This document shows positions 6,791-52,080 of a stretch of 64,000 bases of DNA, one piece after another. Both the position numbers and the translations under genes were made by a program. Source of the stretch: Candidatus Limiplasma sp. (GTDB lineage: Bacteria; Bacillota; Clostridia; Christensenellales; Aristaeellaceae); the NCBI GenBank assembly GCA_963675365.2, contig CAXXVA010000002.1, positions 109,899-173,898 on the forward strand, given 5' to 3'. Below the pieces are notes generated by a model. The model saw only the letters and a list, made by a program, of their open reading frames with translations, was not told the origin of the DNA and did not search any database. How positions within the stretch are numbered: the stretch's first letter is position 1; each line of letters begins with the position of its first letter.

Positions 6791-8956
6791 CTATTCTTGA
6801 TCCATGAGTTTTTCTGATTGATCGCTGCGATTCTTCAGTTCTTTTAAAATCATTTCGCTAGTGACTTCTTCCTGTTTTTCATAAATTAGTATGAACGCTA
6901 TGCATCGTTGTTGTATTTTAGATGGCAATGTTTCACTGGGTTTACCGCTTAAATATCTTTTTATGGATTTATATGCCTTTTCTTCTGAAAGGATTGAATT
7001 GTCATAACGATGTGAGTAGTGATATGTGGTTTTCTCACCATAAGAAAAATATATAAAGGCTGCTATGAAATATGCAATATTAGAGGCACGCTTGGTTTTC
7101 TTTTTTAGGAACTCGTTAAAACCAGTAGGATCATACTGATCCCAGTAACTTACTAAAATATTCAAATTTGTTGATTCTATAAAACCTTTTGTTTTTGACA
7201 ACTCAACCGTCTTCGTTTGAGTGTTCTCTAATATTGTTTCAATCTCCTCACTGGAAAGATTTAAATTAGCCGCCTTTCCTTCTCTTAGCTGCCAGATAAC
7301 TGAAATTAGCATTGGCAATGTTTCTAAAGTAGCTTGATTAATTTTTTCACAAAGAAATTGAAATCGATATTCTGGATTCATTTTCTCAAGTAATTTTAAT
7401 GCACTATGGCCCAAATAGTATCGAACCGTAGGTTCAAAGGAATGTTGATTTTTATCATCTGAGTTTTGAAGAGGTAATAGCCACAACAATAAATTAAAAA
7501 TAATGATCAATCGATCGTTAGGGACATCCTCAATATAACTAAAAAGCATTCTTACGTAGTCATTGATTTGATTTCTTTGATGTAGCCTATGTATGTATTC
7601 ATGTAATTGGGATTCATTCATATTTGTAATCGAGTCAATGATAGTTGGATGTGATATATTGAGAGGGTTGGTTTCCATTGTAAAATATTGAGAAAAGTAC
7701 AGAGGGCTTGCAACTCTACGCATACGTTCAAGAGAACTGCGTGTGGGGTGGCTGCCGTAAAAGTTGTTAAGAACATTGATTCCGAACCAGGGAAACATCT
7801 TTGAAATAAAGGATAAAAAGGTTTCCGGATTCTGGGGATATAGTTTATCCAAGATAGATTTGATCACGTCAATGTAATCATTTTTTGCCTTACCATGAAG
7901 AAAACTAAACATTAGGTCGTTACCTTGTAATAATTGCTGATTGTGCTTAATCCAGATTATCATTTTTGGGTGGAATAGTTGCATAACTACGATTGCAAGT
8001 AGATCAACGAAATTAAACTCGCTAGAGACTGTAAGATACTGAGACTTAAATGCATTAATTAACCGCTTGATATCGCGAACTGTGCGAATTTGTTCAAGAA
8101 TAAAAGGTGATACTTCAGACCAGTATGATTTATCAAAAATGGGATTTGCAGACAACTTCAGAAGTTCATTAAGATGATCGAAAAATAAATCTTCAATAAT
8201 TTGTCTATTAACATCTGGAACAGGGAACATAACTTGAATAATCTTCTCTAAATACTCCTCACCATCACAATTTTGCTCCTTTTCAAGAGCTCTTGATACT
8301 ATTATTCTATCAAACGCCAAAAGGTACAGCATATAAGGGAAATCAGCAATTGAATTGACCAGTTGAAACATCAGGCGGATTTGATCATTGTTTAGCCTAT
8401 CTAAATCATCAATTATAACAAGTAATTTTTGTTTTTGGTCTTGAAGACACTTCACAATATTTTCTTTAAGCTTCATGATATTATTCTTTTTTGTAGCTCG
8501 TTCCATCAAATGGACACCAATACTTCCAAAAAGTCCTGTTAACGGTGCTAATATCAAAGCGGTTGGTGAAAAAAGCTGTACCAACATAATTGCAGATGAG
8601 TATTTTGCCAGCATATTTCCAACGCTATATAATTTCTCGTTGTAGACGGACGCCTTTATCGCTACAGATATTGTTTGAAAAAACTGTTCTAGCAATTGGT
8701 TTGTATTTGTATAGTTCCAAGGATTAAAGCGAATAATTATCGGTTGATTGTTTCTTTCTGTTTTTTCTATAATATCATTAGCAACCATATTGAGTATAGA
8801 TGTTTTTCCAGAGCCCCAACTACCGTATATTCCGACAGTAAAACTTTTATCGCCTTCAATTTTATGATTTAGTATTTCATCGGTTAATCTTTCAACAAAC
8901 GGAGCTCTTTTAAGGAGATCATCCCTTCTGTTGTTTATAGCATTATCAGAGAGCAA
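6791..8956 (-). CDS. KAP-family P-loop NTPase with membrane hairpin inserted in the NTPase domain (AT-rich island; Tmn-like)
   Basis: GIYGSWGSGKTSILNMV Walker A and LLVIIDDLDRL Walker B, with a hydrophobic insert SSAIMLVQLFSPTALILAPLTGLFGSIGVHL between them. Start set at TTG 8954-8956, 5 nt after GAGGTGA, giving MLSDNAINN, which aligns with the neighbour's MLSDQPIQT. The ORF is open to ATG 9058, which has no SD. Confidence 0.85.
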   Translation of the reverse strand: MLSDNAINNRRDDLLKRAPFVERLTDEILNHKIEGDKSFTVGIYGSWGSGKTSILNMVANDIIEKTERNNQPIIIRFNPWNYTNTNQLLEQFFQTISVAIKASVYNEKLYSVGNMLAKYSSAIMLVQLFSPTALILAPLTGLFGSIGVHLMERATKKNNIMKLKENIVKCLQDQKQKLLVIIDDLDRLNNDQIRLMFQLVNSIADFPYMLYLLAFDRIIVSRALEKEQNCDGEEYLEKIIQVMFPVPDVNRQIIEDLFFDHLNELLKLSANPIFDKSYWSEVSPFILEQIRTVRDIKRLINAFKSQYLTVSSEFNFVDLLAIVVMQLFHPKMIIWIKHNQQLLQGNDLMFSFLHGKAKNDYIDVIKSILDKLYPQNPETFLSFISKMFPWFGINVLNNFYGSHPTRSSLERMRRVASPLYFSQYFTMETNPLNISHPTIIDSITNMNESQLHEYIHRLHQRNQINDYVRMLFSYIEDVPNDRLIIIFNLLLWLLPLQNSDDKNQHSFEPTVRYYLGHSALKLLEKMNPEYRFQFLCEKINQATLETLPMLISVIWQLREGKAANLNLSSEEIETILENTQTKTVELSKTKGFIESTNLNILVSYWDQYDPTGFNEFLKKKTKRASNIAYFIAAFIYFSYGEKTTYHYSHRYDNSILSEEKAYKSIKRYLSGKPSETLPSKIQQRCIAFILIYEKQEEVTSEMILKELKNRSDQSEKLMDQE

Positions 8957-9149
8957 AACAATCACCTCAATAAATACATCTAATAGTATTATAGTGAATG
9001 GAAGCATAAATATCAATCGAAATTGTTTCCCAAGGATAGAGCATATGATATGATACATAGTATCGCTGTAGCGAAGGAATATCTATCGATTTGGAAACAA
9101 TGCTTTATCGAATATGATATACTATAACAAAATGTATTTGAGGTGACCC
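8957..9149. promoter_or_regulatory. AT-rich divergent control region between the two KAP NTPase genes
   Basis: Inverted repeat ATTGTTTCC (9022-9030) / GGAAACAAT (9093-9101). Repeated ATATGATAT motifs. TATACT at 9118-9123 lies 27 nt before ATG 9150. Both genes use a TTGAGGTGA RBS context. Confidence 0.5.
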
Positions 9150-11470: not shown

Positions 11471-12223
11471 ATGGATTATCAGGATATAAACACAAAAACC
11501 ATCGACAGCTGGATTGAAGACGGCTGGGAATGGGGTACGCCCATTTCACATGAGGACTATGAAAAGGCGACCCGGGGCGACTGGCGCATGGTGCTCACCC
11601 CTCAGATTGCCGTGCCCAAAGAGTGGTATCCCGAGCTGAAAGGCGCCAGGGTACTGGGGCTGGCGTCCGGCGGCGGGCAGCAGATGCCCGTGTTTGCCGC
11701 GCAGGGCGCCGTGTGTACGGTGCTGGATTATTCCAAAAAGCAGCTCGAATCGGAGCGGATGGTCGCGCAGCGCGAGGGCTATTTGATCAACATTGTGCAT
11801 GCCGATATGACCAAGCCCCTGCCCTTCCCGGATGAGAGCTTTGATCTGATCTTCAACCCCGTATCCAACTGCTATATCGAGGACGTACACCACGTCTGGC
11901 GCGAGTGCCGCCGCATCTTAAAACCCGGTGGCCGCCTGATGGCGGGGCTGGATAACGGCGTCAACTATATTATCGACTGGGACCAGACCGAGATCAAATA
12001 CGCCCTGCCCTATAACCCCCTCAAGGACAAGGCCTTGTATGAAAAAGCCATGCGGGAAAACGACGGCATCCAGTTCTCCCACACGCTCGACGAGCAGATC
12101 CGCGGGCAGATCCAGGCCGGTCTCCGGCTGATTGATCTGTACGAGGATTACAACACCGAGGGCACGCTGCACAGATTCCATGTGCCTGCGTTCTGGGCGA
12201 CCCTCTCTGAGAAGCCGTTGTAA
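11471..12223 (+). CDS. Class I SAM-dependent methyltransferase
   Basis: Motif I VLGLASGGGQQ. AAGGAG RBS before ATG 11471. Base composition looks intermediate by eye. Confidence 0.8.
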   Translation: MDYQDINTKTIDSWIEDGWEWGTPISHEDYEKATRGDWRMVLTPQIAVPKEWYPELKGARVLGLASGGGQQMPVFAAQGAVCTVLDYSKKQLESERMVAQREGYLINIVHADMTKPLPFPDESFDLIFNPVSNCYIEDVHHVWRECRRILKPGGRLMAGLDNGVNYIIDWDQTEIKYALPYNPLKDKALYEKAMRENDGIQFSHTLDEQIRGQIQAGLRLIDLYEDYNTEGTLHRFHVPAFWATLSEKPL

Positions 12224-12224
12224 T

Positions 12225-12392
12225 ATAGGCAAACGACGCACAAATCCCCTATACGCTGACGGGTATATTTTCGCCATCTTGCGCCGGCAGAATCCTCGAC
12301 GTAGCGCTGCTGCTGCTTCAGATACCGCAACCGCCATCTGTAATAAAATCGACACCATCATCGCACAGGGTCTTTACGCGTCGTTTGCCTAT
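12225..12392 (+). repeat. Family-A palindromic repeat, copy R3
   Basis: Core TCGACGTAGCGCTGCTGCTGC. Perfect 15-bp outer arms ATAGGCAAACGACGC (12225-12239) / GCGTCGTTTGCCTAT (12378-12392). Starts 2 nt after the methyltransferase stop. Confidence 0.85.
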
Positions 12393-12700: not shown

Positions 12701-12785
12701 AAATATTCACCCGATGAATATTTTTATGAAAAACGCTTGACAGGGGAACGGACTGTGATTATAATGTGAATGTGAATTCATATTC
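12701..12785 (+). promoter_or_regulatory. Consensus sigma-70-type promoter flanked by two palindromic candidate TetR operators
   Basis: -35 TTGACA (12737-12742), 17-nt spacer, -10 TATAAT (12760-12765). Perfect IR AAATATTCA-N5-TGAATATTT (12701-12723) upstream. 18-bp near-palindrome GAATGTGAATTCATATTC (12768-12785) at the expected transcription start. Confidence 0.65.
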
Positions 12786-12805
12786 ATGGCCTTAATGAAC
12801 GGGAG

Positions 12806-13438
12806 ATGATGCCCATGCCAAAGGAAACGTTTGTGAACCTCAAAGAAGAAAAACAGCAGCGCATATTGAACGCGGCGCTGCATGAGATCGCCGAAAACGG
12901 GTACGACAGGGCCAGCGTCACCCGTATCGTGAAAGAGGCGGGCATCGCCACCGGCAGCTTCTACCAATACTTTGAGGACATGGACGACCTGTTCATCTAC
13001 ATCGCGCTGGAAGCCGGACGGATGAAAGCGCGCTACATGCAGCAGGCTCTCAATGAAAGCAAGGCCCGCAACCTGGAAAGCGTCATCCGCGCTATGTACC
13101 TTGGCGGCATGCGCTTTGGACTGGAGCACGAGGAGTACTACAAAAGCGCGGAAAGCCTTCTGCGCATGAAGGACTCGGAGCTCTACAGCAAAATGCTTGC
13201 CCACGCGGAGAAGAGCGATTTGGCCGTGTGGCTGTTTCAGATCGTCAACGAAGCCATCGCCAACGGCGAGCTGAACAAAAACATCACCCCGGAGCTGTTT
13301 TTCAGGCTTCTGACCAGCATCAACGCCACGATCATCGAATTCCTGATCGAACGCAAATCCGGCGAAGGCATGGACGCGGCGGACCTGGAAACGCTGTGCG
13401 AACTGGGCGTGCAGATCGTACTGCACGGAATCAGCTAA
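12806..13438 (+). CDS. TetR/AcrR family transcriptional regulator
   Basis: N-terminal HTH ASVTRIVKEAGIATGSFYQYFEDMDDLF. The true start may be ATG 12815 (MPKETF). Confidence 0.85.
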   Translation: MMPMPKETFVNLKEEKQQRILNAALHEIAENGYDRASVTRIVKEAGIATGSFYQYFEDMDDLFIYIALEAGRMKARYMQQALNESKARNLESVIRAMYLGGMRFGLEHEEYYKSAESLLRMKDSELYSKMLAHAEKSDLAVWLFQIVNEAIANGELNKNITPELFFRLLTSINATIIEFLIERKSGEGMDAADLETLCELGVQIVLHGIS

Positions 13439-13491
13439 TATAACGAACGTATAGACCGAAATCAATCACGGACCGAAAAGGAGACTTGACC

Positions 13492-14364
13492 ATGATCCAT
13501 GTGAAAAACCTTTCGTACTCCTACCAAAGGAACGATCGCTTTGCCGTCCGGGATATCTCGTTTGATATCGGCAAGGGCGAAATCTTCGGGTTTCTGGGCC
13601 CTTCGGGCGCGGGCAAATCGACCACGCAGGGTATCCTGACCGGGCTTCTTTTAATGCAAAACGGCGAGGCCGTGGTGGACGGCTATAACCTGCGCAAAGA
13701 AGACAAGAAGCGCTTCAACCGCATCGGCATGAGTTTTGAGCAGTCCAACCTCTATTCCAAGCTCACCGCCGAGGAAAACCTGCGCTACTATGCAAAGCTG
13801 TTCGACGTCCCCACCCGCGACCCGCGCGCGCTGATCGACATGGTGGGGCTTGGCGGCAAGGAAAACCAGAAGGCCGGATCGTTTTCCAAGGGACAGAAGC
13901 ACCGGCTCACCTTCGCGCGCTCGCTGCTCAACAACCCCGCGATGTGGTTTCTGGACGAGCCGACCACCGGTCTCGACCCGGCCATCGCCGCGCAGATCAA
14001 GGATATCATCCGCAAGGAATGCCAAAGCGGCGTCACCGCGTTTTTAACCACGCATAACATGTTCATCGCCGACGAGCTGTGCGACCGCGTCGCGTTTATC
14101 GTGGACGGCGAAATCAAGCTTATCGACTCGCCCAAGGCGCTCAAGCTCCAGTACGGGCACAAGACCGTCGCCGTGGAATACCGGCAGGATGGCGACGTGA
14201 AGAAGGAGACCCTCGCCCCCGCCAAGGCGGAGGACAAGGCGCGCCTCCACCAGATCCTGGACACGGGCGAGATTATCACCATGCACTCCAAAGAAGCGAC
14301 GCTTGAGGAGATCTTCATCAAGGTCACCGGAAAGGGGCTGACGGCGGATGAAACTGTGGGATAA
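13492..14364 (+). CDS. ABC transporter ATP-binding protein
   Basis: GFLGPSGAGKSTT, FSKGQKHRLTFARSL, WFLDEPTTGLD. AAAAGGAG RBS before ATG 13492 (the track start 13486 is TTG). Confidence 0.9.
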   Translation: MIHVKNLSYSYQRNDRFAVRDISFDIGKGEIFGFLGPSGAGKSTTQGILTGLLLMQNGEAVVDGYNLRKEDKKRFNRIGMSFEQSNLYSKLTAEENLRYYAKLFDVPTRDPRALIDMVGLGGKENQKAGSFSKGQKHRLTFARSLLNNPAMWFLDEPTTGLDPAIAAQIKDIIRKECQSGVTAFLTTHNMFIADELCDRVAFIVDGEIKLIDSPKALKLQYGHKTVAVEYRQDGDVKKETLAPAKAEDKARLHQILDTGEIITMHSKEATLEEIFIKVTGKGLTADETVG

Positions 14365-15544
14365 CTATAAAAAAGAACTGAAAATCGCCTCCCGCGGCTT
14401 CTACTTCTACATGGAGATCATCACCGCGGTCATCCTGCTGGCGGCGATCCTTTTGTTCGTGCCCGCCGAAACCACGAGCGTTTCCAAAGAACTGATCTAT
14501 ATGGACGGCCCGCGCGAAGTGCTCGACGCCATGCTTGCGCAGAACTTCGGCGAGCCGGGGCAGTACGTACGCGCGGAGGACACCGCCGTCAGGCTCCGCC
14601 CGATGGATCTCACCTACTACGACGAGCAAACCGGCATACAGTTTGACAAATCCTTTACCGATAAAGTGACCTTGGAACTGGAAACCTGGAACTACTATAA
14701 CGCCGATACCGGCGCGCTGGAAAAGACAGTTTATATCGCGGCCAGCATGGACGACATGCTCCGCGTTGCCCGGACCGAAAAATGGTACGCCACGGTCGTA
14801 ACCGCCGGTGAAGACGCGCAGCCGCAGTACCGCCTGCTCCTCTTCGGCTCGGAAAGCGAGCGTTACCGCAACCTGATCTCCGCCGTGATGGGCGCGGGCG
14901 ACACTCCGGCGCTGCTCAAGGCCATGGACGCGCAGCCTGTGGAAACCCTCGGCGCGGAAAACGTGCTTAACAACCGCCAGAGCTTTATGCCCATGGCCGT
15001 GGTGATCATGAACGGGCTGATGGGCATGCTCGTGGTCATTTCCTACCTGATCATCGACAAATCCTCCGGGCTGATCCGCGCGATGGCGCTGACGCCCATG
15101 GGCACGCGCAGCTACCTGATGAGCAAGGTGTTGGTGGTGCTGACCACCTCGCTGGTATCCTCCATCGTGGTCACCGTGCCTATCATGGGTGCGCAGCCCA
15201 ACTACCTATTATTTATCCCGACGGCCATGCTGGTATCCGTGCTCTCGTGCATGATCGGGCTTTGGCTCGCGTCGTTCTTCTCCGACATCAAATCGGCCTA
15301 CGGTATGATCTTCCTGATGCTTCTGTTGTTGATCCTGCCCGCGATGAGCTACATTCTGCCCAGCTTCGCGCCGCTGTGGATTAAGCTGATGCCGACCTAT
15401 CCCATGCTGCAGGCTGTGAAAGAAACCCTGCTTAAAACGCCCGACGTGGGCTATGTGCTTTTGGTCGGCGGCGGGATGATCGTACTGTCGGGGCTGTTGC
15501 TATGGCTGTCGGAACGCCGCTACCGCAGGATTTTGGGGGTGTAG
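14348..15544 (+). CDS. ABC-2 type transporter permease with large N-terminal extracytoplasmic domain
   Basis: 398 aa. One N-terminal TM helix, a soluble domain of about 170 aa, then multiple C-terminal TM helices. Overlaps the ATPase 3' end by 17 nt. Confidence 0.75.
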   Translation: MKLWDNYKKELKIASRGFYFYMEIITAVILLAAILLFVPAETTSVSKELIYMDGPREVLDAMLAQNFGEPGQYVRAEDTAVRLRPMDLTYYDEQTGIQFDKSFTDKVTLELETWNYYNADTGALEKTVYIAASMDDMLRVARTEKWYATVVTAGEDAQPQYRLLLFGSESERYRNLISAVMGAGDTPALLKAMDAQPVETLGAENVLNNRQSFMPMAVVIMNGLMGMLVVISYLIIDKSSGLIRAMALTPMGTRSYLMSKVLVVLTTSLVSSIVVTVPIMGAQPNYLLFIPTAMLVSVLSCMIGLWLASFFSDIKSAYGMIFLMLLLLILPAMSYILPSFAPLWIKLMPTYPMLQAVKETLLKTPDVGYVLLVGGGMIVLSGLLLWLSERRYRRILGV

Positions 15545-15547
15545 GAC

Positions 15548-16552
15548 ATGAAAAAAGCATTCAGCGTTTTACAGCGCGATTTAAAACTGGCCGTCAAGGA
15601 CCCGCTGTCGCTCATCGTCATCCTCGCGCCGCTGATCGTTGCGCTGGTCATCTCCTGGATGTCGCCGGGCATCAGCGAAACGACGGTGAACTTCGCCGTG
15701 GATGCAAGCCTGGGCCAAAGCGTTGTCGATACGCTTGAAAACTACGCGAGCGTCGAAACGCTCGACGGTGCCGACGCCGTGCGCGAACGCGTGCTGCGCC
15801 GCGACGAGGTGTTCGGCCTGATCCCGGGCGATTCCGGCCCCGTGCTGGTGCGCCAGGGGAACGAATCGGAAACCTCTCTGTCCATGGCGAAACTGCTGGG
15901 CGCCATAGCCCAGACCGGAACCGCGGAACAGGTTCAGGGCGATCATTTCGGCTTCCTCTCCTTCCGCGACGAGACCTCGCCGCTGAAACGCGCTCTGTCC
16001 ATCTCGATGCTCCTGATGATCAGCGTGTTCACCGCGATGCTCATTTCGCTGGGACTGGTGGACGAAAAAACCGACCAGACCATCAAGGCCGCCAACGTCA
16101 CCCCGATGCCGCAGTGGCTTTATGTGATCGCCAAAAGCTTCATCGGCGTAACCGCGCTTCTGATCTCCTCGGTCGTCGCGCTGCTCATCCTCGGGATGAC
16201 CGCCATCAACTGGGGGCAGATCCTGCTGATGATCGTCGCAAGCGCGCTGATTTCCATCATCGTCGCGTTCGTCATCGGCCTGGCGTCGTCGGATTATATC
16301 GAGGCTTCCGGCAGCGTAAAAATGCTGATGCTGCCCATGATCGCCTCGGTTGTCGTGTACGAGCTCGTCGATCCCGCCTGGCACTGGACCGTATGGTGGA
16401 GCCCGTTTTACTGGGCGTACCGCGGCATCACGGAGATCATTCAGGGTACGTCGCAGTGGGGGAGCACGCTCCTGTACGCCGCGATCATCGCGCTGATCTC
16501 CGCGGGGGTTTACACGCTCAGTCTGAAAAGTATTCGAAAATCTTTGCAGTAA
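15548..16552 (+). CDS. ABC-2 type transporter permease (second subunit)
   Basis: 334 aa with the same architecture as the preceding permease. Starts 4 nt after its stop. Confidence 0.75.
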   Translation: MKKAFSVLQRDLKLAVKDPLSLIVILAPLIVALVISWMSPGISETTVNFAVDASLGQSVVDTLENYASVETLDGADAVRERVLRRDEVFGLIPGDSGPVLVRQGNESETSLSMAKLLGAIAQTGTAEQVQGDHFGFLSFRDETSPLKRALSISMLLMISVFTAMLISLGLVDEKTDQTIKAANVTPMPQWLYVIAKSFIGVTALLISSVVALLILGMTAINWGQILLMIVASALISIIVAFVIGLASSDYIEASGSVKMLMLPMIASVVVYELVDPAWHWTVWWSPFYWAYRGITEIIQGTSQWGSTLLYAAIIALISAGVYTLSLKSIRKSLQ

Positions 16553-16585
16553 CATAGAACGCACGCATTTGAAGGAGGTCATACC

Positions 16586-16822
16586 ATGGAAACCGGATAT
16601 CTGGTCGGGGGAATCGCCTGCGCGGCGTACGCGCTGCTGTGCTTCGGGATCGGGTTTTTAAAACCGCAGAGCCTCATGAAACTCGTCAAGCAGAAGCTCA
16701 AAATGTTCACCGGCAGCAAGGAACCCAGCGACAGGGCCACCATGATCACCTGCGTCGTCTTCGGCGTGCTGGGCGTGGCGGGGGCTGTAATCCTATTCGC
16801 CGTCGGCGCCGCCAACGCCTGA
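16586..16822 (+). CDS. Small two-helix membrane protein
   Basis: 78 aa with two hydrophobic helices. GGAGG RBS. Last gene of the TetR-ABC cluster. Confidence 0.55.
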   Translation: METGYLVGGIACAAYALLCFGIGFLKPQSLMKLVKQKLKMFTGSKEPSDRATMITCVVFGVLGVAGAVILFAVGAANA

Positions 16823-16842
16823 TCAGCTTGCCCGGAAGGCCT

Positions 16843-17213
16843 GATCTGCGGTGTCAGCAGCGGACGGGAAGGGGCATCATTTACAAACGCGTAAACTCAA
16901 CCCCTTCCCACCCTTGCTTCCTAGCATCTCAAACCTTCTGAACAAGCTGATTCCTAATACTCAGGATCACTTAATCTGCGGAGAAGGTGTGTCGGATTTT
17001 CGCATCACTTACGAACGAGTAAGCTCCGCTCAACCCTCCATCCGTTTTATTGTCGCAGCCCGCACTTCCCTTTGGCTGCTCTGAAAAACGTCCCAACCGA
17101 AACTCCTTTTGCGCTTCGCGCAAGCACCACACAGGGTGCCCAGTCGTTCGGCTGCCTAGCATCTCAAGCCTTCTGAACAAGCTGACTCCTAATACTTAGG
17201 ATGGCTTGATCTG
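16843..17213 (+). repeat. Family-B modular repeat, tandem array (two units plus the start of a third)
   Basis: Units start at GATCTGCGGTGTCAGC (16843), AATCTGCGGAGAAGGTGTGTCGG (16972) and GATCTG (17208). Each carries GCATCAYTTACRAACG...CTCAACCC. The 59-nt module CCTAGCATCTCAARCCTTCTGAACAAGCTGAYTCCTAATACTYAGGAT...ATCTG occurs at 16920-16978 and 17155-17213. Confidence 0.8.
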
Positions 17214-17436
17214 TAATGTTGATGGTTAGTTGCCTCGTGTATATAAAATGTAAGCGAGGTAATGGTGTTTACTAGCATTGAATATTCATTATTGTATGTC
17301 GTATATGCCTCTATATGAATACAAAAAATGTTATTTGTATGAAGATATAATCTAGTATATGTTTGCTAGAAGTATCTTTATTTCAGGAATTCTTTGTGTC
17401 AGTTTATAAGCGGCTTAATATTTAGATTCAATATAT

Positions 17437-17465
17437 TGACGAAAACACTCAAATAAAGGTATACT
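17437..17465 (+). promoter_or_regulatory. Candidate promoter of the ATPase/TOPRIM operon
   Basis: TTGACG (17437-17442), 17-nt spacer, TATACT (17460-17465), within AT-rich island DNA about 84 nt before ATG 17549. Confidence 0.45.
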
Positions 17466-17548
17466 ACTTTTAGTTTACATATAAGCCTTTATCTCGTTAA
17501 CAGTGAATCTAGTTATTTAAGTTATAAAGTATTCAAGGAGTAATAGTT

Positions 17549-18928
17549 ATGAATAGTCTTCAGAGATTTCAAATTCTCGGGCTATATGGTGACAGAGATG
17601 TTGATATTACGATTAATGACAATACCGTAATATTTGTTGGGGAAAACGGCTTAGGAAAAACCACGGTTTTAAAATATATGTTTTCTGTTCTTTCAGGTGT
17701 TTATTCTCATATGCCGACACATAAGTTCGACAAGATTGTTATTACTATTAGCAATAAAGAGTACACCTTATCGAGCAATCAAGCAAAAACGGCAAAGGTA
17801 ATTAACCCAAATTCAATTAGGCGTTTGCCTGTTCAATTTCGCAGAGAATTATTTAAACTGGATAGAGAAGATGGAATTTCAATTAATGATGTTCTTAATA
17901 TTGCTAATAAATTGAATTATCCTGTGAAAATGATTCTTGATATACTTCAATATAACTCAGAGAACAACAATAATGATATTCATCAGATTGAAATGAACTT
18001 TGATGAAAGTCATATTACACAAATTCCTAATGCTCTTGGGGCAAGAGTTTTATATCTTCCAACTTATAGACGAATTGAAGAAGACTTATCCTATATCATT
18101 CAAGAACGACAGAATTTTCGGGACCCTGAAGAGCTTCAAACTATATTTGAATTTTCAGAAAGAGGTAGCCATAGCTATATAGAATTAGTCGAATTTGGTA
18201 TGCAGGATGTAAAAGATAAAATTAAAAAGAAATGCTCAGAATTGAGCAGATATTCAGAGGCAAGCTTTAAAGAATTAGCTTATTTAAATTTAGGGGACGT
18301 TATAGATAAGAAATATCGAATGTCGGAACAGACATTTACATCAGTGCAAGATAGCGATATAGAGAAGTTTAAATTATGTGTATCACGAAATAATAAAAAT
18401 ATGCTTAATAATAAGCAAATACAATTATTGACTCAGATTCTGCATGGAAATAAACCACAAGCAAATGAAACACAAAGACAGATTCTTCTATATTATTTTA
18501 GGAATTTACTTGCACTTCAAGATGAATTAGAGAAAAAAGAAAAGGGTATTTCTGATTTTTGTAGTATGTGTAGCGAGTATCTTTCGCTTTCAGATAAGAT
18601 TATGATCTATGATATATCAAAATTCGATGTGCAAATATTGAAACAAAGAAGCAATGAGCCAATAGATATGAGCGATTTGTCTTCAGGAGAAAAACAAATA
18701 GTATCCCTATTTAGCCATCTGTATTTGCAAGACAAAGATGAGTTATTTGTTATAATTGATGAACCAGAGCTATCTCTTTCAGTACCTTGGCAAAAGCGGT
18801 TTTTATGTGATATAAGGAATGGCTCATCTTGCACAGGACTTATTGTTGCTACACACTCTCCGTTTATATATGATAATAATCTTTTTAAATATGCACATGG
18901 GCTAAAAGAATACTTTATTAACGGGTGA
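17549..18928 (+). CDS. ariA: ABC-type (SMC/RecF/OLD-like) ATPase, AriA-like
   Basis: FVGENGLGKTTVLK Walker A, LSSGEKQIVSLF signature, LFVIIDEPELSLS Walker B, ATHSPF H-loop, and a long helical insert between the lobes. AAGGAG RBS. AT-rich codon usage. Confidence 0.8.
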   Translation: MNSLQRFQILGLYGDRDVDITINDNTVIFVGENGLGKTTVLKYMFSVLSGVYSHMPTHKFDKIVITISNKEYTLSSNQAKTAKVINPNSIRRLPVQFRRELFKLDREDGISINDVLNIANKLNYPVKMILDILQYNSENNNNDIHQIEMNFDESHITQIPNALGARVLYLPTYRRIEEDLSYIIQERQNFRDPEELQTIFEFSERGSHSYIELVEFGMQDVKDKIKKKCSELSRYSEASFKELAYLNLGDVIDKKYRMSEQTFTSVQDSDIEKFKLCVSRNNKNMLNNKQIQLLTQILHGNKPQANETQRQILLYYFRNLLALQDELEKKEKGISDFCSMCSEYLSLSDKIMIYDISKFDVQILKQRSNEPIDMSDLSSGEKQIVSLFSHLYLQDKDELFVIIDEPELSLSVPWQKRFLCDIRNGSSCTGLIVATHSPFIYDNNLFKYAHGLKEYFING

Positions 18929-18932
18929 AGTT

Positions 18933-19880
18933 ATGAGCATGATATCTATTCATAAATCTGCCCTAGAAGAGATTATTGTACCATATCATTTCTTTTTGAC
19001 GGCACAAACCAAAGATGCGAAAAAGTTATTTGGCTTTGTTGAAGGGATAAATGATATTTCATATTATAATAATCATATTAGTCGGGTTATTAAGGATTAC
19101 GAGTTAATACTAATTGAAGCGGGTGAGCCAGGAAATAAAAGTAAGGTACTTCAGCTAATTGATATAATTGATTGGAATAGGTATCCTGAAAAACAGACAG
19201 CTTTTTTTGTGGATAGAGATCTAGATGATTTTTTTAATGGACAAAAGGATAGAGCAAATTTATATATAACAGATGATTGCTCTATTGAGAATTCAATTGT
19301 TAGTACATATACACTTAATAGAGTTATAAAAGAATTATGCAATATAAATTTATATGAAAAGGAAAATGAGAAACTATTCCAGCTGTTTTTATGTGGTGTA
19401 AACGAATTAGCGAAAGCGGTTTCGCTAATTAGTGCAGCATATATTTGGTTGCAAAGAAAAGGAGATAAACCATCATTCAATTGCATTGAGATTAAAGATG
19501 TCTTATGCATGGAAAAATGCAATGTGAAGACAATGAATAGTACGGATATTGTTTCATATATTGAAAGAAAATGGAATACCAAAATTATGATTGATGAAGT
19601 TTTATCTGTCGAAGTAGAGTTCCAAGATAAAAATATTGACTTGAGATATATTCGAGGGAAGTACTTAATGTGGTATTTTGTGAATTTTATCAATAACTTC
19701 CATGAGTCTTGTCAAGAATACTTTCCGCGCTTATCAAAACCACGGTCAATAAGAAAGCTAGATGTAAATAATGCTATTAATGATTTAGGGGTGCGCTCAA
19801 AAACGCCAGAGACATTGGTCGATTTTATAAGTAGAACGTACCTGATGTTTATCTCAGAAGCATGTGCAACATCTGTTTAG
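18933..19880 (+). CDS. ariB: DUF4435/TOPRIM-like nuclease, AriB-like
   Basis: FVEGINDISYYN (TOPRIM Glu motif), GNKSKV, FFVDRDLDDFF (DxD), CSIENS. Starts 5 nt after the ATPase stop. Confidence 0.75.
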   Translation: MSMISIHKSALEEIIVPYHFFLTAQTKDAKKLFGFVEGINDISYYNNHISRVIKDYELILIEAGEPGNKSKVLQLIDIIDWNRYPEKQTAFFVDRDLDDFFNGQKDRANLYITDDCSIENSIVSTYTLNRVIKELCNINLYEKENEKLFQLFLCGVNELAKAVSLISAAYIWLQRKGDKPSFNCIEIKDVLCMEKCNVKTMNSTDIVSYIERKWNTKIMIDEVLSVEVEFQDKNIDLRYIRGKYLMWYFVNFINNFHESCQEYFPRLSKPRSIRKLDVNNAINDLGVRSKTPETLVDFISRTYLMFISEACATSV

Positions 19881-19926
19881 AAAGCTAGCATCTTACTGGC
19901 TGATTATTCTTTAAATTCATAGTATT

Positions 19927-19952
19927 ATCGCCGCAGAGTTTTCTGCGGCGAT
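19927..19952 (+). terminator. Intrinsic terminator of the island operon
   Basis: Perfect 10-bp stem ATCGCCGCAG-agtttt-CTGCGGCGAT followed by TGATTTTA. Confidence 0.75.
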
Positions 19953-20089
19953 TGATTTTACGCAAGTTTAAGTTGCCTTTGATTGCGGGTTTACATTTCT
20001 TTGCTATGATGGTGCCGTGATAGAGGATTTCCTTTGACCAAACCCGTCGAGGCCGAGCGATATGGACGCCGTTCTGGGCGGGTTTTCGG

Positions 20090-20116
20090 GACAGGCACCA
20101 TGTGCCTGTCTTTTCG
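20090..20116 (+). terminator. Orphan hairpin terminator
   Basis: GACAGGCAC-cat-GTGCCTGTC followed by TTTTCG. No CDS lies upstream between 19953 and 20089. Confidence 0.45.
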
Positions 20117-20250
20117 TGTAGCTGGGTTTTTCCATTGTAATACGATTATCCGCCGGCTTGCGTGTCCTTTGGCGGTGTCCGGTGACGCGTTTGCATCAAC
20201 CCGTGCGGGGGTATTGATGCTGCGAGAAATTTAAAAGCTGTGTTTGCGGC

Positions 20251-20272: not shown

Positions 20273-20299
20273 GCGGGATATATCAACCGAAACGTTCGG

Positions 20300-22282
20300 C
20301 TACGGCCGGTAATAGTGCGTGATGCGGGTGCAGACGCCCTTGTCGTTTAGCACAAACTGCAGGTACATCATCTGGCTGGATAGCGTTGTGGTCGAGTACT
20401 GAATGGTGCGCGTGCCGTCGTCGTTGATATTGATCACGCCGATATCCGGGTCGGCAAAGTAGAGGTTGCGGCTGCCATCCTGGTTATCGGGCATGCCGAA
20501 ATCCTTATACACGGCGGTGATCTCCGCTTCGGTGGAACCTACGCCCACGCCGCGCGGGGGCGTGGCGATGTTGCGGTTCATGTCCACGCTCGCCAGCAGC
20601 CACTGGTTGCCCACCAGCACGAACACGGCCTTGCCCCAGGTATACGTAAGCTCCTGCGCCTGCCCCTCGTAGAACATGTACTGAATATCCTGCGTCGTGT
20701 CCGGCTGCCCGAATGTGCCGGTGAAATCCGACAAACGCGTTTTCCCCAGCACGAAGTCCGCAAAGGTATCCTCGCGCGAGTAGGGGTCCGGCAGGTAGGG
20801 AGCGACGGAGAACTTGTAGTAGACCTCCAGCGTGGACGACCGCTTGCCGTAGCCGTTGACCACCAGCGCGTGCAGGTAGACGCGGCCCGTGGGCAGCGCG
20901 ATGGGGGTTTCTTCATCCCAGATCGGGCTGAGGTCGGGGTCGGGCTGCGAGCCGTCGAAGGTGTAATAGAAGGTCAGGTCGTCTTCCTTGGCCTTTTGCT
21001 CGTCCGTTTTGGTGTTGTAGTTGGAGGATTTCTCGCCCGGCCGCAGGCTGACAGACTTCAGCTTGTTATAGGTGTTGGGGGCGAGGTTGGCCTTGGGGGC
21101 GGCGGGCGTGGGGTAATACACCGTATACTGCGCCGAAAACTCGTCGGAGTGCAGATCGTCGATTACGCATACGGCGCGCAGCTTAAACGTGCCCTCGGTG
21201 ATCGTTACCGTATCGCCTGTCATCAGCGTACCTTCCTCGGGCAGAATCTTATCGTCGTCCAGCGTGTAGTAGATGTCGTAGCCCTGCGGCGAGGTGAGCT
21301 GGATATGCTGTTCCAGCTCGTAGCGGCCGGCGACCTGCGTGGCGTCCACCTCCGGCTTTTCGGGGATGAAGGTGTTGCGTTCCACACGGTAGGCTTCGCG
21401 GCCTGTGTTTTCATAAGCGGTCAGCATCAGGTCCGCCGCCTCGGGGTTGCGGTCCTGGCGGGTCAACAGCGCGATCAGCGCCGTGTACGCCTCGGTGCGG
21501 GAGGGGCTGACGGTATCGATCAGGTCTTGGTACACGGCCTCGGCCAGGTCGTCCTGGTTGTTGAGCTCGTACACCGTTGCCAGAAGGTACAGCCCGTCGT
21601 AGTTTTCGGGGTCGAGGGTATCGGCGATGCGGAAGGCCTTGATGGCCGAATCCATATCGCCTATTTCGGTATAGTCCTGCCCCACCAGCCAGTAGGTCTG
21701 CGCGGGCACGGTCAATAACCGGTCGAGAATCTCCTCCTGCTCCGTGAGCAAGGTAGCGTCGGTCGTCTGCGCAAGCGCGAGCTCTTCTTCCGTCGTCATC
21801 AGCACCTGTTTGCGGCCGGTGATGCGCTGGCCCTCGTCGGTCGACTTGATGTAGATAAAGTACCCGACCGCCGCAAGCACAAGCAGCGCCGTAAGGATCA
21901 CGAAAAGCAGCATCCAGTTGAACTTGTGGTACTGCATGCCCTTGGTCTTATGGCGGCTGGAGGTTACGTAGGGCGTCCCAACGCTGCCGTGCACGGGAAC
22001 GCCGGAGCGCGTTTGCGGGCGGCTGAGCCCGTCGCCCTTGGCGGCGTTTGCGCGCCGTACGCCGCGAGCGCTTTCCGGCGGCAGGGGGGACATTTCATAG
22101 TCGCCGTACTCGGGTACCGCTTCGCGTTTTTCATCGGGCAGCATTTGCGGCGGCGCGTCGCCGCGCCGTCCCTGGCGCATGCCGCGAACGCCGGGATCGT
22201 CGTCCCGGCGCGCCATCTCGCCGCAGACGCCGCACATCACGGCGTCGTCGGGTAAATAACTGCCACATTGCTTACAATACAT
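20300..22282 (-). CDS. Zinc-ribbon / single-pass membrane / TPR-repeat protein with C-terminal beta-rich domains
   Basis: N-terminal MYCKQCGSYLPDDAVMCGVCG, TM helix WMLLFVILTALLVLAAVGYFIYI, TPR-like region (YWLVGQDYTEIGDMDSAIKAFRIA...). Confidence 0.7.
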   Translation of the reverse strand: MYCKQCGSYLPDDAVMCGVCGEMARRDDDPGVRGMRQGRRGDAPPQMLPDEKREAVPEYGDYEMSPLPPESARGVRRANAAKGDGLSRPQTRSGVPVHGSVGTPYVTSSRHKTKGMQYHKFNWMLLFVILTALLVLAAVGYFIYIKSTDEGQRITGRKQVLMTTEEELALAQTTDATLLTEQEEILDRLLTVPAQTYWLVGQDYTEIGDMDSAIKAFRIADTLDPENYDGLYLLATVYELNNQDDLAEAVYQDLIDTVSPSRTEAYTALIALLTRQDRNPEAADLMLTAYENTGREAYRVERNTFIPEKPEVDATQVAGRYELEQHIQLTSPQGYDIYYTLDDDKILPEEGTLMTGDTVTITEGTFKLRAVCVIDDLHSDEFSAQYTVYYPTPAAPKANLAPNTYNKLKSVSLRPGEKSSNYNTKTDEQKAKEDDLTFYYTFDGSQPDPDLSPIWDEETPIALPTGRVYLHALVVNGYGKRSSTLEVYYKFSVAPYLPDPYSREDTFADFVLGKTRLSDFTGTFGQPDTTQDIQYMFYEGQAQELTYTWGKAVFVLVGNQWLLASVDMNRNIATPPRGVGVGSTEAEITAVYKDFGMPDNQDGSRNLYFADPDIGVININDDGTRTIQYSTTTLSSQMMYLQFVLNDKGVCTRITHYYRP

Positions 22283-22296
22283 CGCGAATCGATCCT

Positions 22297-22980
22297 TTAG
22301 GCTTTGCAGGATTCCGCGGACTGGTTGTTCACCGGATGTCCGTTGATTTCCAACTCAAATTCCTGCTTTAAAAACCGCGCGGCCTTCTCGCACATCAAAA
22401 TGCGGGGCAGGTAGATGGACAGGTACTCAAGCACGGAGCTTGTCGTATCCATCACCAGCGACTGGCGGATCACGCGGGTCTTGCGGTTGACGATCACTTC
22501 GTTTTTCTGGATGGCGAAGTTCACGCGGTCGTGGATATCGGTGGGATCGGGGCTGCCGTTGCGCACCCGGCTTTTGTGCGCGTCGGATTTATCGGCGATG
22601 ATCAGCGCGGCGCTGACCGCCGAAGACGCCGTTCCGCTTTCCTCCTCGTGGTTGCCGACGGCCGTCACCACCTCCAGCGCGTCATTGATGGTCATGCCCG
22701 CTTCGCGGAGGATGGGGAACAGCATGATCGCGCCGTTGGGCCCGTGGTCGTGGCGGTTGATGGAGTTGCCCACGTCGTGTACCCATCCGGCGATGGCCGC
22801 AAGCTCAATCTCGCGCTCGGAATAGCCGAGCTGGATCAAAATATGGCTCGCGGTGCGGCTGACGTAGCTTAAATGCCGCGGGCCGTGATCAGTATACCCC
22901 AGGTGCTCCAGATAGCGGTTGCCCGCCTTGATCAGCGCGCGGATGTTTTCGTTCTGTTTGATATCTGCCAGTGTAATCAT
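22297..22980 (-). CDS. HD-domain phosphohydrolase
   Basis: Start at MITLADIKQNE (ATG 22978-22980). HGPRH and GWVHDVGNSINRHDHG motifs. The track ORF to 23187 is an upstream extension overlapping the next gene. Confidence 0.8.
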   Translation of the reverse strand: MITLADIKQNENIRALIKAGNRYLEHLGYTDHGPRHLSYVSRTASHILIQLGYSEREIELAAIAGWVHDVGNSINRHDHGPNGAIMLFPILREAGMTINDALEVVTAVGNHEEESGTASSAVSAALIIADKSDAHKSRVRNGSPDPTDIHDRVNFAIQKNEVIVNRKTRVIRQSLVMDTTSSVLEYLSIYLPRILMCEKAARFLKQEFELEINGHPVNNQSAESCKA

Positions 22981-22990
22981 GTGTCGCTCC

Positions 22991-23815
22991 TTAGCGCAGC
23001 TGCAGCCGCTGTACGGCAAGGTAGGTCGGATCGTCGGTAAAATCGCGGTAGGGCGCTTCGCCGCCGAGGCGCTCGATGGCGTTGCGGATCTCGATGAAGT
23101 CGATGTAAGAGGTATCCTTGGCTTCTGCGGCCGAAAGCAGCGGTTCCACGGCGCGCTCGTCGTCCATCTTGCCCAGATAGCCCGCATACAGCGCGCGCTT
23201 GCCCGCCTGAGTCTTGAAGCGTTCGATGGCGAAGGTCACCACGGCGTCGTCGGCGCCGGGCCGGGCCAAAACGTCCAGCAGCGCTTCCCTGCCAGCGTCG
23301 TCCGCCGCCGTAAAGGCGATCTTCGCGGGGCCGAGCGCCTTGTCGCCCATCAGGTTCAGGCTTTCCAGCGCCGCGTCCAGCAGATCTTCGTCCTCGGTGC
23401 GCTCCACCTGCCAGCGGATGTATTCAACCATCGGCTTATCGCTTTCCATCTCGCGCAGAAGGTCCACGGCGAGCATCCGCGCTTCGGTGGGCGCGCCGGC
23501 GTTTTGCGCAAGCGCCAGCAGCGCGTCCTCGTCGCCCAGCGCATGCAGCCGGGTGAGCAGCGGATCGGGTGTGGGAACGCCCTGTGCGATATAGTCGTTC
23601 AGCAGGTCGATCAGCGCTTTGGCGTCCGTAAAGCGCTCAAAGTATTCCGCGGGCGTCTGCCCGTCCAGAAAATCGGCCGGGGTTTTCAGCCACGCGGTGT
23701 AAAACTCGGGCGCGGCTTCTTCCAGCGCGTCGGCCGTTTTGTATTTTCCGCGGTTTTCTTCAATCCAGCGGCCGAGCGCCTTGGCGAACGCCGCGTCGAA
23801 ATCAATCAGTTTCAT
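22991..23815 (-). CDS. Conserved hypothetical, all-alpha (HEAT-like repeats)
   Basis: 274-aa ORF in an operon-like string with the HD gene. Acidic and helical, with no catalytic motif recognised. Confidence 0.6.
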   Translation of the reverse strand: MKLIDFDAAFAKALGRWIEENRGKYKTADALEEAAPEFYTAWLKTPADFLDGQTPAEYFERFTDAKALIDLLNDYIAQGVPTPDPLLTRLHALGDEDALLALAQNAGAPTEARMLAVDLLREMESDKPMVEYIRWQVERTEDEDLLDAALESLNLMGDKALGPAKIAFTAADDAGREALLDVLARPGADDAVVTFAIERFKTQAGKRALYAGYLGKMDDERAVEPLLSAAEAKDTSYIDFIEIRNAIERLGGEAPYRDFTDDPTYLAVQRLQLR

Positions 23816-23885
23816 GGGGTCTCCTCTCGTGATACGGGGTTTTTGTAACGTTCGCGTTTTACCGCGCGATCCCCTGTTATGCCCG

Positions 23886-24764
23886 TCAGCGCCGGTTTAA
23901 AAGCCTGAGCAGGTCGGGCGTTGAAAAGTTATATTTTTTTGCGCAGAAGTGGCACACGAGCTCCGCGCCGTCCACGTCGTCGGTGATCATGCGCTTGAGT
24001 TCTTCCGGGCCCAGCGCGATCAACGCGCGCTCCATGCGCTCCCGGGAACAGTTGCATTCGTAGCGCAGTTCCCCGGTTTCCAAAAGCTCCGGCTCAAGCC
24101 TCGCAAACCAGGTTTGCAGAAGGGCTTCCGGCGTTTCGTGCAGCAGCTCGCCCGCGATCTCGCCGAAGATCGGCGAGCGCAGTTCGAGCTGATCGATCAG
24201 CTCGTCGCCGCAGCCCGGCATGGCCTGCAGCAGCACCCCGCCGGCGGCGTCCACCGTCACGTCCGAGGCGATCACGCCCAGGCTGACCAGCGAGGGGCTT
24301 TGCTCGCTCTGTACGTAGTAGTACGCAAGGTCGGCGGCGATTTCGCCCGAGGTCAGGCTCACCTGGCCGATGTAGGGGCTTTTCATACGCAGGTCCTTGA
24401 CCACGCTCAGCCGCCCGTGCCTGCCCACGCCGCCGCCGATATCGAGCTTGCCGTCCTTGAGCGGCAATTGCACCGTGTGGTTTTGCACGTAGCCGCGAAC
24501 GGTGACGGCCGCGTCGGCATGCCCTCCAACGCAGACGATCTTTTTCAGCGGCCCGTCGCCGTCGATGGTCAGGGTCACGGTGGATTTCGGCTCCTTAAGC
24601 GTGGAGGTTAGCATGGCCGCGGCCATCAGCCCGCGCCCGAGCGCCGCGGCGGCCACGGCGCTGGACCCCTGCAGTTCCTGCGCCCTGCGCACGGTTTCGG
24701 TCGCGTTTAACATTAGGCCGCGCACGGCGCCGCCCCGCAAGGTGAAATGCAGCATGGTATCCAT
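23886..24764 (-). CDS. hslO: Hsp33 redox-regulated chaperone
   Basis: C-terminal zinc centre CNCSRERMERAL ... CHFCAKKYNF. Typical length of 292 aa. Confidence 0.9.
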   Translation of the reverse strand: MDTMLHFTLRGGAVRGLMLNATETVRRAQELQGSSAVAAAALGRGLMAAAMLTSTLKEPKSTVTLTIDGDGPLKKIVCVGGHADAAVTVRGYVQNHTVQLPLKDGKLDIGGGVGRHGRLSVVKDLRMKSPYIGQVSLTSGEIAADLAYYYVQSEQSPSLVSLGVIASDVTVDAAGGVLLQAMPGCGDELIDQLELRSPIFGEIAGELLHETPEALLQTWFARLEPELLETGELRYECNCSRERMERALIALGPEELKRMITDDVDGAELVCHFCAKKYNFSTPDLLRLLNRR

Positions 24765-50900: not shown

Positions 50901-51021
50901 AAGTGGAATACCGTTATTGGTTTATCATATTTGATAAATGTGGAGAATTTGATGAGCTTCAAATCATAGCCAATTTTCTGTAATGTTGTATGTTTATATA
51001 GTAATGCAGAAGGAGCATATT

Positions 51022-52080
51022 ATGTCAGATACATTAATAGATATTTTGAATAAAGCATTTGAGGAACATATTAATAAACTTAAAAAGCAAGGTGTTTCCG
51101 ATGAGGAAGTTTTAGTAAGAGAACGAGAATTTGACTTTACAGAAGTGCTAGAGACAATGATACAAACTGCTACAGATAATACGGTTCAATTCTTTCAGAG
51201 CACTATGTATGAACGTGTGATGGAGGAACGAGCTACTATAGATGAGTTTATTGCACATCAGGATCAAATATGGGGTAAAGGTTTTGTAGCATCAGAAGCA
51301 ATGTATATTATTGCTGTCGAATCTGCAGAGGCATATGGAGAGTATTTGGCAGATTTACCGAATAACCAAAAAGATGATAAAAAATATCGATACCTTGCAT
51401 TACGAGAACTTCATGGACGTTCTTGTCAAGTGTTTCTTGAGATACTTTGCCTTATGAAATCAGGATTTGCTGATGGTGCATATGCACGATGGCGTACTAT
51501 GTATGAGCTGAGCATTGTAGCGGAGTTTATTTGGAACAATGAAGAATACGTTGCTCAAGCATTCATTCAAGCATCTGAAGGCAATGACAACTGGTACAAC
51601 TGGGCAAAAGAAGCACCATGCTTCAAATCACAAAAAAAGAATATAACTTTTTCTGCTATTGAATCTAAGTGTAATCTATTAACTGATGATTGGAAAAAAC
51701 AACACGAATTGGCACATAAAATTGTTCACGCATCGCCACAAGCCACATTTAAGCGTTTAGGTATTTTCAAACCAAATGGCAATATAATAGCAGGTCATAC
51801 TGACTATGGTATAGTTAGTGCAGCCGAGAATTCTGCGATTTCGCTTTCAAAAATCACAACATTATTCCTTACTCTAATACCATATGGGGACGGTTTAGTG
51901 CACTCACGATGTTTGAGTAAATGGGTAAAAGAAATAAAAAAACATTATTATAATGCTGAAGATAATAGTTTTACAAATGCTGAACCGAAAAATCCACAAT
52001 TGATGGGAATCAAACTAAATAGTACCGGAGAAAACACGCATGCCAATTCCACGGGTTCGCACCGAGTAGATTGCGATTGA
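51022..52080 (+). CDS. AT-rich orphan all-alpha protein (possibly DUF5677-like), function unknown
   Basis: AAGGAG-N7-ATG 51022. 352 aa. AT-rich codons until about 52040. The last 12 codons (ANSTGSHRVDCD) are GC-rich and encoded by the outer arm of repeat R6. Confidence 0.7.
   Translation: MSDTLIDILNKAFEEHINKLKKQGVSDEEVLVREREFDFTEVLETMIQTATDNTVQFFQSTMYERVMEERATIDEFIAHQDQIWGKGFVASEAMYIIAVESAEAYGEYLADLPNNQKDDKKYRYLALRELHGRSCQVFLEILCLMKSGFADGAYARWRTMYELSIVAEFIWNNEEYVAQAFIQASEGNDNWYNWAKEAPCFKSQKKNITFSAIESKCNLLTDDWKKQHELAHKIVHASPQATFKRLGIFKPNGNIIAGHTDYGIVSAAENSAISLSKITTLFLTLIPYGDGLVHSRCLSKWVKEIKKHYYNAEDNSFTNAEPKNPQLMGIKLNSTGENTHANSTGSHRVDCD

Follow-up and report, generated by a model that had tools for sequence, protein, structure and literature searches.

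A 64,000-nucleotide stretch of a Candidatus Limiplasma sp. genome (contig CAXXVA010000002.1, positions 109,899 to 173,898; hereafter the window) contains an AT-rich islet of some 2.7 kb that carries a two-gene operon, ariA-ariB, encoding an ABC-type ATPase and a DUF4435/Toprim protein, the two components of the anti-phage defence system PARIS (phage anti-restriction-induced system). The reading we favour, with a probability of roughly 0.8, is that the islet holds an intact PARIS operon that was horizontally acquired by this GC-rich Ca. Limiplasma-like Clostridia genome of gut or digester origin and would act by the PARIS mechanism. This is a known and widespread defence system, correctly identified by the first-pass annotation made from the sequence alone, and not something new.

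The two genes and the ribosome-binding site that precedes them are as follows.

17549-18928, plus strand: ariA, an ABC-type ATPase of 459 residues (Pfam, PADLOC, hhalign and Foldseek).
18933-19880, plus strand: ariB, a predicted DUF4435/Toprim nuclease of 315 residues (Pfam, PADLOC, AF2/Foldseek and hhalign).
17535-17540, plus strand: AAGGAG ribosome-binding site, 8 nt before the ariA ATG, read from the sequence.

Both co-oriented open reading frames exist as the first-pass annotation described them, and all of the motifs it quoted (GENGLGKT, LSSGEKQ, IIDEPELSL, ATHSP, FVEGINDISYY and FFVDRDLDD) are present. Translational coupling of the genes is likely, because ariB starts only 4 nt past the ariA stop codon (gap 18929-18932). 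The MacSyFinder/DefenseFinder rule for PARIS asks for an adjacent AAA_15 domain of at least 32 bits or AAA_21 domain of at least 27 bits, together with DUF4435 at 27 bits or more (PMC9122126), and with this rule Rousset et al. found PARIS in 5.2% of genomes (PMC9122126). The window pair satisfies it with 52.6 bits for AAA_15 and 55.3 bits for AAA_21 in the first protein, 75.8 bits for DUF4435 (E = 5.6e-21) in the second, and the 4-nt gap between them. The concern that the second protein might fail to match DUF4435 was thus not borne out. In PADLOC the best model for protein 1 was AriA (2.6e-28), while protein 2 matched AriB (3.6e-20) and, weakly, AriAB. The Pfam and PADLOC scans that had been suggested as checks therefore matched AAA_15, AAA_21, DUF4435, AriA and AriB; with Pfam above its curated cut-offs and with fold matches and profile-profile alignments in agreement, the assignment to an AriA ABC ATPase and an AriB DUF4435 protein stands.

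The ATPase motifs of AriA comprise the Walker A sequence G31-ENGLGKT-T39 (containing K37), the signature LSSGEKQ (377-383), the Walker B/D-loop IDEPELSL (D404, E405) and the H-loop THSP (H436), and K37, LSSGEKQ, D404-E405 and H436 are invariant across 35 AriA homologues. In the AF2 model (predicted local distance difference test score, pLDDT, 80.4) a helical insertion at approximately residues 218-348 lies between the two ATPase lobes. A phmmer search of the PDB matched E. coli AriA at 1.3e-11, over the C-terminal 130 residues only. A profile built from the 35 homologues aligned by hhalign with canonical AriA, represented by a Pseudoalteromonas protein 67% identical to that of E. coli B185 over a 130-residue fragment, with a probability of 99.2 and E = 1.9e-19 over 384 columns. 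In a Foldseek search with the model, the top 14 PDB matches were all AriA chains (E 1e-13 to 5e-11; TM-scores 0.50-0.68, best 0.60/0.68), and the next family was retron PtuA at 1e-7, weaker by a factor of 10^6.

Domains of the AAA_15/AAA_21 type are common to a number of defence systems, so the pair might be another ABC-ATPase system (AbiL, class 1 or 2 OLD or Gabija, Septu or retron PtuAB, or MADS) mislabelled as PARIS. The ATPase does also match the PtuA, mad3 and mad8 models of PADLOC and an OLD nuclease chain in the PDB, in the last case with a weaker score than AriA. The three PADLOC models are weaker than AriA by at least 11 orders of magnitude, those for PtuA giving 3e-17 or worse, and AriA chains come first in the fold search. 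P2 Old, Gabija GajA, retron-associated systems, AbiL and MADS3-4 all resemble the window pair in combining an AAA_15/AAA_21-type ATPase with a Toprim-type nuclease; AbiL and PARIS are sister systems of one ABC-ATPase/Toprim superfamily, in which RloB (PF13707) is annotated among the partner domains (PMC11464382, Fig. 6c). In these systems the Toprim_Old domain is fused, or the partner is of the RloB/DUF4276 or HNH type, whereas the window encodes a separate DUF4435 protein. At E ≤ 1 protein 2 matched no Pfam family beyond DUF4435 save XFP_N, which was below threshold (E = 0.09), and no PADLOC model beyond AriB/AriAB; an AbiL-type partner such as RloB, which belongs to AbiLii specifically, was among the families not found. 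There is likewise no match to Toprim_Old (PF20469) and no fusion of the OLD/GajA kind, the genes being separate, and the partner is DUF4435 and not the HNH protein PtuB of the Septu and retron PtuAB arrangement. We therefore regard a mislabelled relative as very improbable, and the "AbiL-like" half of the label in the first-pass annotation gives way to PARIS.

For AriB, kinship with the B185 protein emerged only through profile-profile and fold comparison. No AriB chain came up in sequence searches of the PDB, whether the query was the protein alone (E ≤ 1) or a profile of 21 sequences (E ≤ 10), and pairwise BLAST with canonical AriB gave no significant match. By hhalign, window AriB aligned with B185-type AriB at a probability of 89.9 (E = 1.7e-6) and with the PARIS-1 AriB of E. 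coli O42 at 97.4 (E = 1.3e-11). The AF2 model of AriB (pLDDT 89.1, predicted TM-score 0.86) gave just two significant PDB matches in Foldseek, 8ux9_A and 8v46_D, both of them AriB from PARIS complexes and both full length with a probability of 1.0, TM-scores of 0.47-0.51 and 16% identity. A search of a phage collection returned no AriB match.

The catalytic residues are kept in both proteins. K37 and E405 of window AriA are equivalent to K39 and E393 of B185 AriA. In AriB, hhalign together with a residue count on the B185 sequence gives the equivalences (window = B185) E37 = E26, D41 = D30, D94-R95-D96 = D88-R89-E90, E119 = E122, R241 = R236 and K69 = K64. E37, D41, D94-R95-D96, E119 and R241-G242-K243 are invariant in 21 AriB homologues, which leaves K69 as the only equivalenced residue that varies among them. 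E26 is catalytic in B185 AriB, and the E26A mutation inactivates it (PMC11464382, PMC12409363). Of the four B185 residues implicated in tRNA recognition (R28, K60, K64 and R236), two, K64 and R236, have conserved counterparts in K69 and R241.

In the B185 system AriB is held by a hexamer of AriA until a phage protein binds the hexamer, and the released AriB dimerises and cleaves tRNA (PMC11464382, PMC12409363). We infer that this mechanism is the best-supported reading for the window pair as well. AriA, with its helical insertion, would form a trimer of dimers that keeps AriB monomers inactive until a phage protein binds to it in an ATP-dependent manner; AriB would then be released and dimerise to a two-metal Toprim endoribonuclease acting on host tRNA, so that translation would stop and the infection abort. 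The stoichiometry of such a complex, the trigger, the tRNA substrate and the defence phenotype would in each case be expected by analogy with B185.

Two systems have been validated, in E. coli O42 (PARIS-1; pFR84/pFD237) and in E. coli B185 (PARIS-2; PDB 8UX9 and 8V45-8V49), and their sequences were taken from Table S2A of Rousset et al. 2022, in which PARIS-1 AriA is represented by its first 399 residues. Over these the window ATPase shows 27% identity (E = 3e-27). PARIS-1, like the window pair, is a two-gene ariA-ariB operon; the AriA proteins have the motifs YLPTYRRIE and EFG-x-x-DV in common, and in AriB the motifs VEG/FEG, FFVD-x-D, IEN and RGKY are in register. Overall identity is approximately 18-27%, the host of PARIS-1 is enterobacterial, and PARIS-1 is carried at a P4 satellite hotspot, whereas around the window copy there is no sign of a phage, satellite or recombinase. 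PARIS-2 matches the window pair in architecture, folds and size (464 and about 310-316 residues, compared with 459 and 315) and has the same ATPase and Toprim residues at the positions given above, and it differs in its low sequence identity, in the lack of any pairwise or profile-to-sequence match for AriB, in unrelated pore loops and in the residues R28 and K60. An initial impression that B185 AriA lacks YLPTYRRIE was dropped, as the homologous YFPAFRTM is present there. These alignments clearly put the window pair closer to PARIS-1 than to PARIS-2, within the broad lineage of the O42 system, which has been little studied. The proposal that it represents an uncharacterised Firmicute clade does not hold, since the validated O42 PARIS-1 is nearer than B185 and since Proteobacteria and Archaea have full-length ATPase homologues at 37-41% identity, each paired with a DUF4435 gene.

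The nearest relatives (45-56% identity) are from Firmicutes, and a search with the ATPase returned more than 5,000 matches, many of which span the full length at 37-41% identity and come from Proteobacteria, Planctomycetes and Archaea. An exhaustive hidden Markov model (HMM) search with the AriB profile found 2,781 clusters at 50% identity, 696 of them at E ≤ 1e-30. A word-indexed search had yielded only 21 AriB homologues and the idea of a rare family; this proved to be a sensitivity artefact. Judged by these searches, the lineage is not a rare one and is not confined to Firmicutes. At each of the loci sampled (L001-L004, L013-L015 and L047) the ATPase gene has the DUF4435 gene immediately after it. 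These loci come from metagenome-assembled genomes (MAGs) of Bacilli, from Desulfoscipio, Methanosarcina, Massilia and E. coli, and from a Logan assembly contig without taxonomic assignment, and the ariA-ariB pairing is thus kept across phyla. The surroundings of these loci include type I restriction-modification and GmrSD genes in Methanosarcina, transposases or recombinases in Bacilli MAGs and Desulfoscipio, and a P4 satellite in E. coli.

Several of these loci are of interest in their own right. In the Methanosarcina MAG (L014:2508-11365) a PARIS pair of the same lineage has hsdM and hsdS upstream, while downstream come genes for Hypoth_Ymh and GmrSD and then hsdR, the whole being a compact archaeal defence island. 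In Massilia timonae (L015:5001-7414) the pair has a GC content of 0.40 against 0.66-0.67 in its flanks, and that of Desulfoscipio (L013) is also strongly AT-shifted from its host. Low GC thus looks like a trait of the PARIS lineage and not a pointer to a specific donor, because the pair is AT-shifted in Massilia and Desulfoscipio too. When E. coli genomes were searched at the DNA level, the window pair found no match and the Massilia homologue one weak match, to E. coli GPEC60-12-649 (L047; NZ_CM160084.1, 2524358-2526680), which carries a pair of the broad lineage to which the window pair belongs (WP_001472069 and WP_001472067). Like PARIS-1, this pair is closer to that of the window than the B185 prototype is. 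By megablast this pair is present in 1 of 5,426 complete E. coli genomes. Its AriA is 27% identical to that of the window over the full length (E = 4e-45) and its AriB 26% identical over 274 residues (E = 9e-12). Unlike the window copy, it is flanked by psu and int within a P4-like satellite located at ssrA, in a hotspot with the order psu … IS1 … truncated integrase … ssrA, and WP_001472067 is among the P4-hotspot systems in supplementary file 2 of Rousset et al.

The islet and the two regulatory features associated with it are as follows.

17214-19926, no strand: the AT-rich islet, defined by its composition profile and by the same intergenic site being empty in related genomes.
17436-17465, plus strand: candidate promoter TTGACG-18-TATACT, sigma-70-like with 10 of 12 matches, within the 335-bp leader.
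19927-19952, plus strand: intrinsic terminator hairpin of 11 bp, 7 of them GC, followed by a T-rich tail; host backbone.

The composition profile gives the islet a GC content of approximately 0.31; between 17250 and 19750 it is 0.30-0.32, against 0.55-0.65 on either side, in line with the sharp AT-richness described at first pass. A flanking gene of 660 residues points to Ca. Limiplasma-like MAGs as the host lineage, and three such genomes show the site without the islet. In L005 and L011 the sequences corresponding to 12718-16815 and 20299-23999 (about 79% nucleotide identity) are joined by about 90 bp, so that 16815 leads to 20299, and in L008 position ~16958 joins ~19929. By sequence comparison the islet is an insertion, horizontally acquired, because it is absent from the same site in all three; it is not a piece of core genome conserved in all relatives. 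The flanks are collinear with those of the relatives and, as first noted, hold no adjacent integrase or transposase; nor was any recombinase, phage or satellite gene found near the islet. When the islet was compared by BLASTN with L001-L004 and L013-L015, similarity was confined to the two genes, with no common ends or leader.

The promoter credited to the operon is present as a TTGACG/TATACT site, but its spacer is 18 nt and not 17, and such sites occur in the AT-rich stretch about as often as expected (16 observed, 13.4 expected), so the candidate matches no better than chance density. No open reading frame was found in the 335-bp leader ahead of ariA. The "perfect terminator" is a real hairpin; it belongs to the host backbone and not to the islet, because a hairpin is present at the same position in the empty sites of L005, L008 and L011, and the ariA-ariB operon therefore reads into a host terminator. 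An Rfam scan (E ≤ 1) and a tRNA scan around the islet gave nothing relevant. Between this terminator and the 660-residue gene, a stretch at ~19953-20118 on the plus strand is conserved in L008 (about 77% identity over 19929-20071), absent from L005 and L011, and ends with a second hairpin and a run of T (~20090-20118). It looks like a small RNA unit, and has no match in Rfam.

A number of observations weigh against the reading of the islet as a working PARIS operon. The pair is only 15-16% identical to the B185 proteins of known structure, as divergent as the first-pass annotation had supposed, with no pairwise signal for AriB, and the TM-scores are moderate (0.47-0.68). PARIS AriA hexamers are characterised by an aromatic interface (IS2) and by basic pores, central and radial. 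The window AriA loops that match the trigger-sensing pores (136-146, 183-187 and 202-207) are of low confidence in the model, where they appear disordered, and are unrelated to those of B185 in sequence. In AriB the B185 residues R28 and K60, proposed tRNA contacts, have no counterparts, R28 aligning with I39 and K60 with a gap, and the RNA target may therefore differ. On the side of expression, the O42 relative is active only if over-expressed, the promoter match is at chance density, and an operon of 30% GC would have to be expressed in a host of roughly 60% GC.

The first group of these observations bears on whether the pair, though of the PARIS family, has diverged in function, cutting another set of tRNAs or another nucleic acid and sensing a trigger that is not Ocr-like. 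Both the trigger and the tRNA target of the window pair may differ from those of B185, because the pore-equivalent loops are unrelated and disordered and R28 and K60 are not conserved. Identity to B185 AriB of 16% would also allow it, as would the poor conservation of the trigger-sensing pores across the 11 PARIS clades of Burman et al., in which AriA and AriB co-evolve (PMC11464382), and the differing phage spectra of PARIS-1 and PARIS-2. Conservation of the catalytic core and of the residue pairs R236/R241 and K64/K69 argues that any such divergence would be variation within the PARIS mechanism, and we give it somewhat less than an even chance.

The second group bears on whether the islet is a selfish addiction cassette of the toxin-antitoxin kind, or a silent passenger that does nothing to defend its host. 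One set of PDB depositors called AriA an antitoxin; a tiny AT-rich islet in a GC-rich host could mean poor or silenced expression; and PARIS-1 of O42 protected against many phages but only under induction, being inactive from its native promoter (Rousset et al.). In B185, however, deletion of either gene is non-toxic, which excludes a classical toxin-antitoxin system (PMC9122126), and in the window both open reading frames are full-length with intact catalytic residues, and relatives lie in defence islands. An addiction cassette or passenger thus seems unlikely to us, and a horizontally acquired PARIS operon remains the preferred interpretation.

The left border of the islet is marked by copies of a repeat element, and a short sequence resembling part of it lies near the right border.

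16823-16951, plus strand: repeat element copy 1, immediately left of the insertion region, in host DNA; minimum free energy -64.8 kcal/mol, z = -5.8.
16985-17213, plus strand: degenerate tandem copy 2 (direct repeat D2), from comparison with the element consensus.
19885-19905, plus strand: 21-nt remnant resembling the 3' arm of the element, CTAGCATCT-TACT-GGCTGATT, directly after the ariB stop.

The element is dispersed and multi-copy, about 130 nt long, and folds into a long hairpin whose core (…GGGATGGCAAGGGGCATCACTTACGAACGAGTAAGCTCAACCCCTTGCCACCCTTGCTTCCTAGCATC…) is conserved. It occurs at 31 metagenome loci (L016-L046), often at contig ends, and in two copies in L008 (~150-290 and 12190-12330), and typically lies directly after gene terminators, sometimes in tandem (as also in L017/L039 and L028) and often breaking assemblies. 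Compensatory changes are found in 10 of the 37 pairs of the element, and its terminal arms covary. There is no match in Rfam, and in Ca. Limiplasma-like Clostridia it could represent a REP/MITE-like sequence (repetitive extragenic palindrome or miniature inverted-repeat transposable element) or a structured RNA not yet classified. In the window, copy 2 has the core GCATCACTTACGAACGAGTAAGCTC at 17002-17026 and the 3' arm with a 28-nt tail (repeat R2) at 17151-17213, and the AT-rich DNA begins exactly at its end, which is the left border of the islet. Identification of 19885-19905 as a remnant of the element's 3' arm is tentative, resting on a 9-mer and a 7-mer. A 63-nt direct repeat (16916-16978 and 17151-17213) was considered as an att duplication and rejected, as the repeats are the 3' ends of the two tandem copies and the 172-bp spacer between them contains the element core, as judged from 34 aligned copies from the window, L008 and metagenomes.

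The islet may have been captured beside the dispersed element, which would serve AT-rich cassettes as a landing pad or as a substrate for recombination, and not delivered by a phage, satellite or recombinase; in the same proposal, and separately from the capture, the tRNA target and trigger may differ from those of B185. Three points favour capture, namely the tandem copies at the left border, the 3'-arm remnant after the ariB stop, and a parallel in L039. In that locus (L039:1-2414) the arrangement mirrors the window, with a full element copy, a degenerate tandem copy and then a 2-kb AT-rich island (GC ~0.35) with a single gene, whose 667-residue protein is unrelated and has only a weak DUF2207_C match, no family assignment and no PADLOC match. 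Among approximately 21 element copies with a readable 3' flank, AT-rich DNA follows only in the window and in L039. An integron- or MITE-like mode of cassette capture was set aside as of low probability, there being no integrase, one exact core in the whole window, and only these two copies abutting AT-rich DNA. We hold out little expectation for the proposal as a whole; if capture did occur, accessory cassettes of AT-rich DNA would use the element to land in the genomes of these Clostridia.

Two further AT-rich islets lie elsewhere in the window. At 6791-9058 on the minus strand (GC ~0.33) a gene encodes a 755-residue KAP-family P-loop NTPase (Pfam 2.6e-51) that matches PifA in PADLOC (1.6e-70), and is probably another horizontally acquired abortive-infection gene. 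A third islet, at 50983-52080 on the plus strand (GC ~0.36), encodes a 365-residue DUF5677 protein (Pfam 9e-18) with no match in PADLOC.

The PARIS call would be reproduced by standard tools such as DefenseFinder or PADLOC, and what is known of PARIS is unchanged by the window pair. The window adds one more intact system, in an uncultured lineage of Christensenellales-like Clostridia, and shows that a defence operon can stand as a bare 2.7-kb islet without mobility genes. The divergent AriA/AriB pair also provides material for comparative work on the trigger and tRNA specificity of the family.

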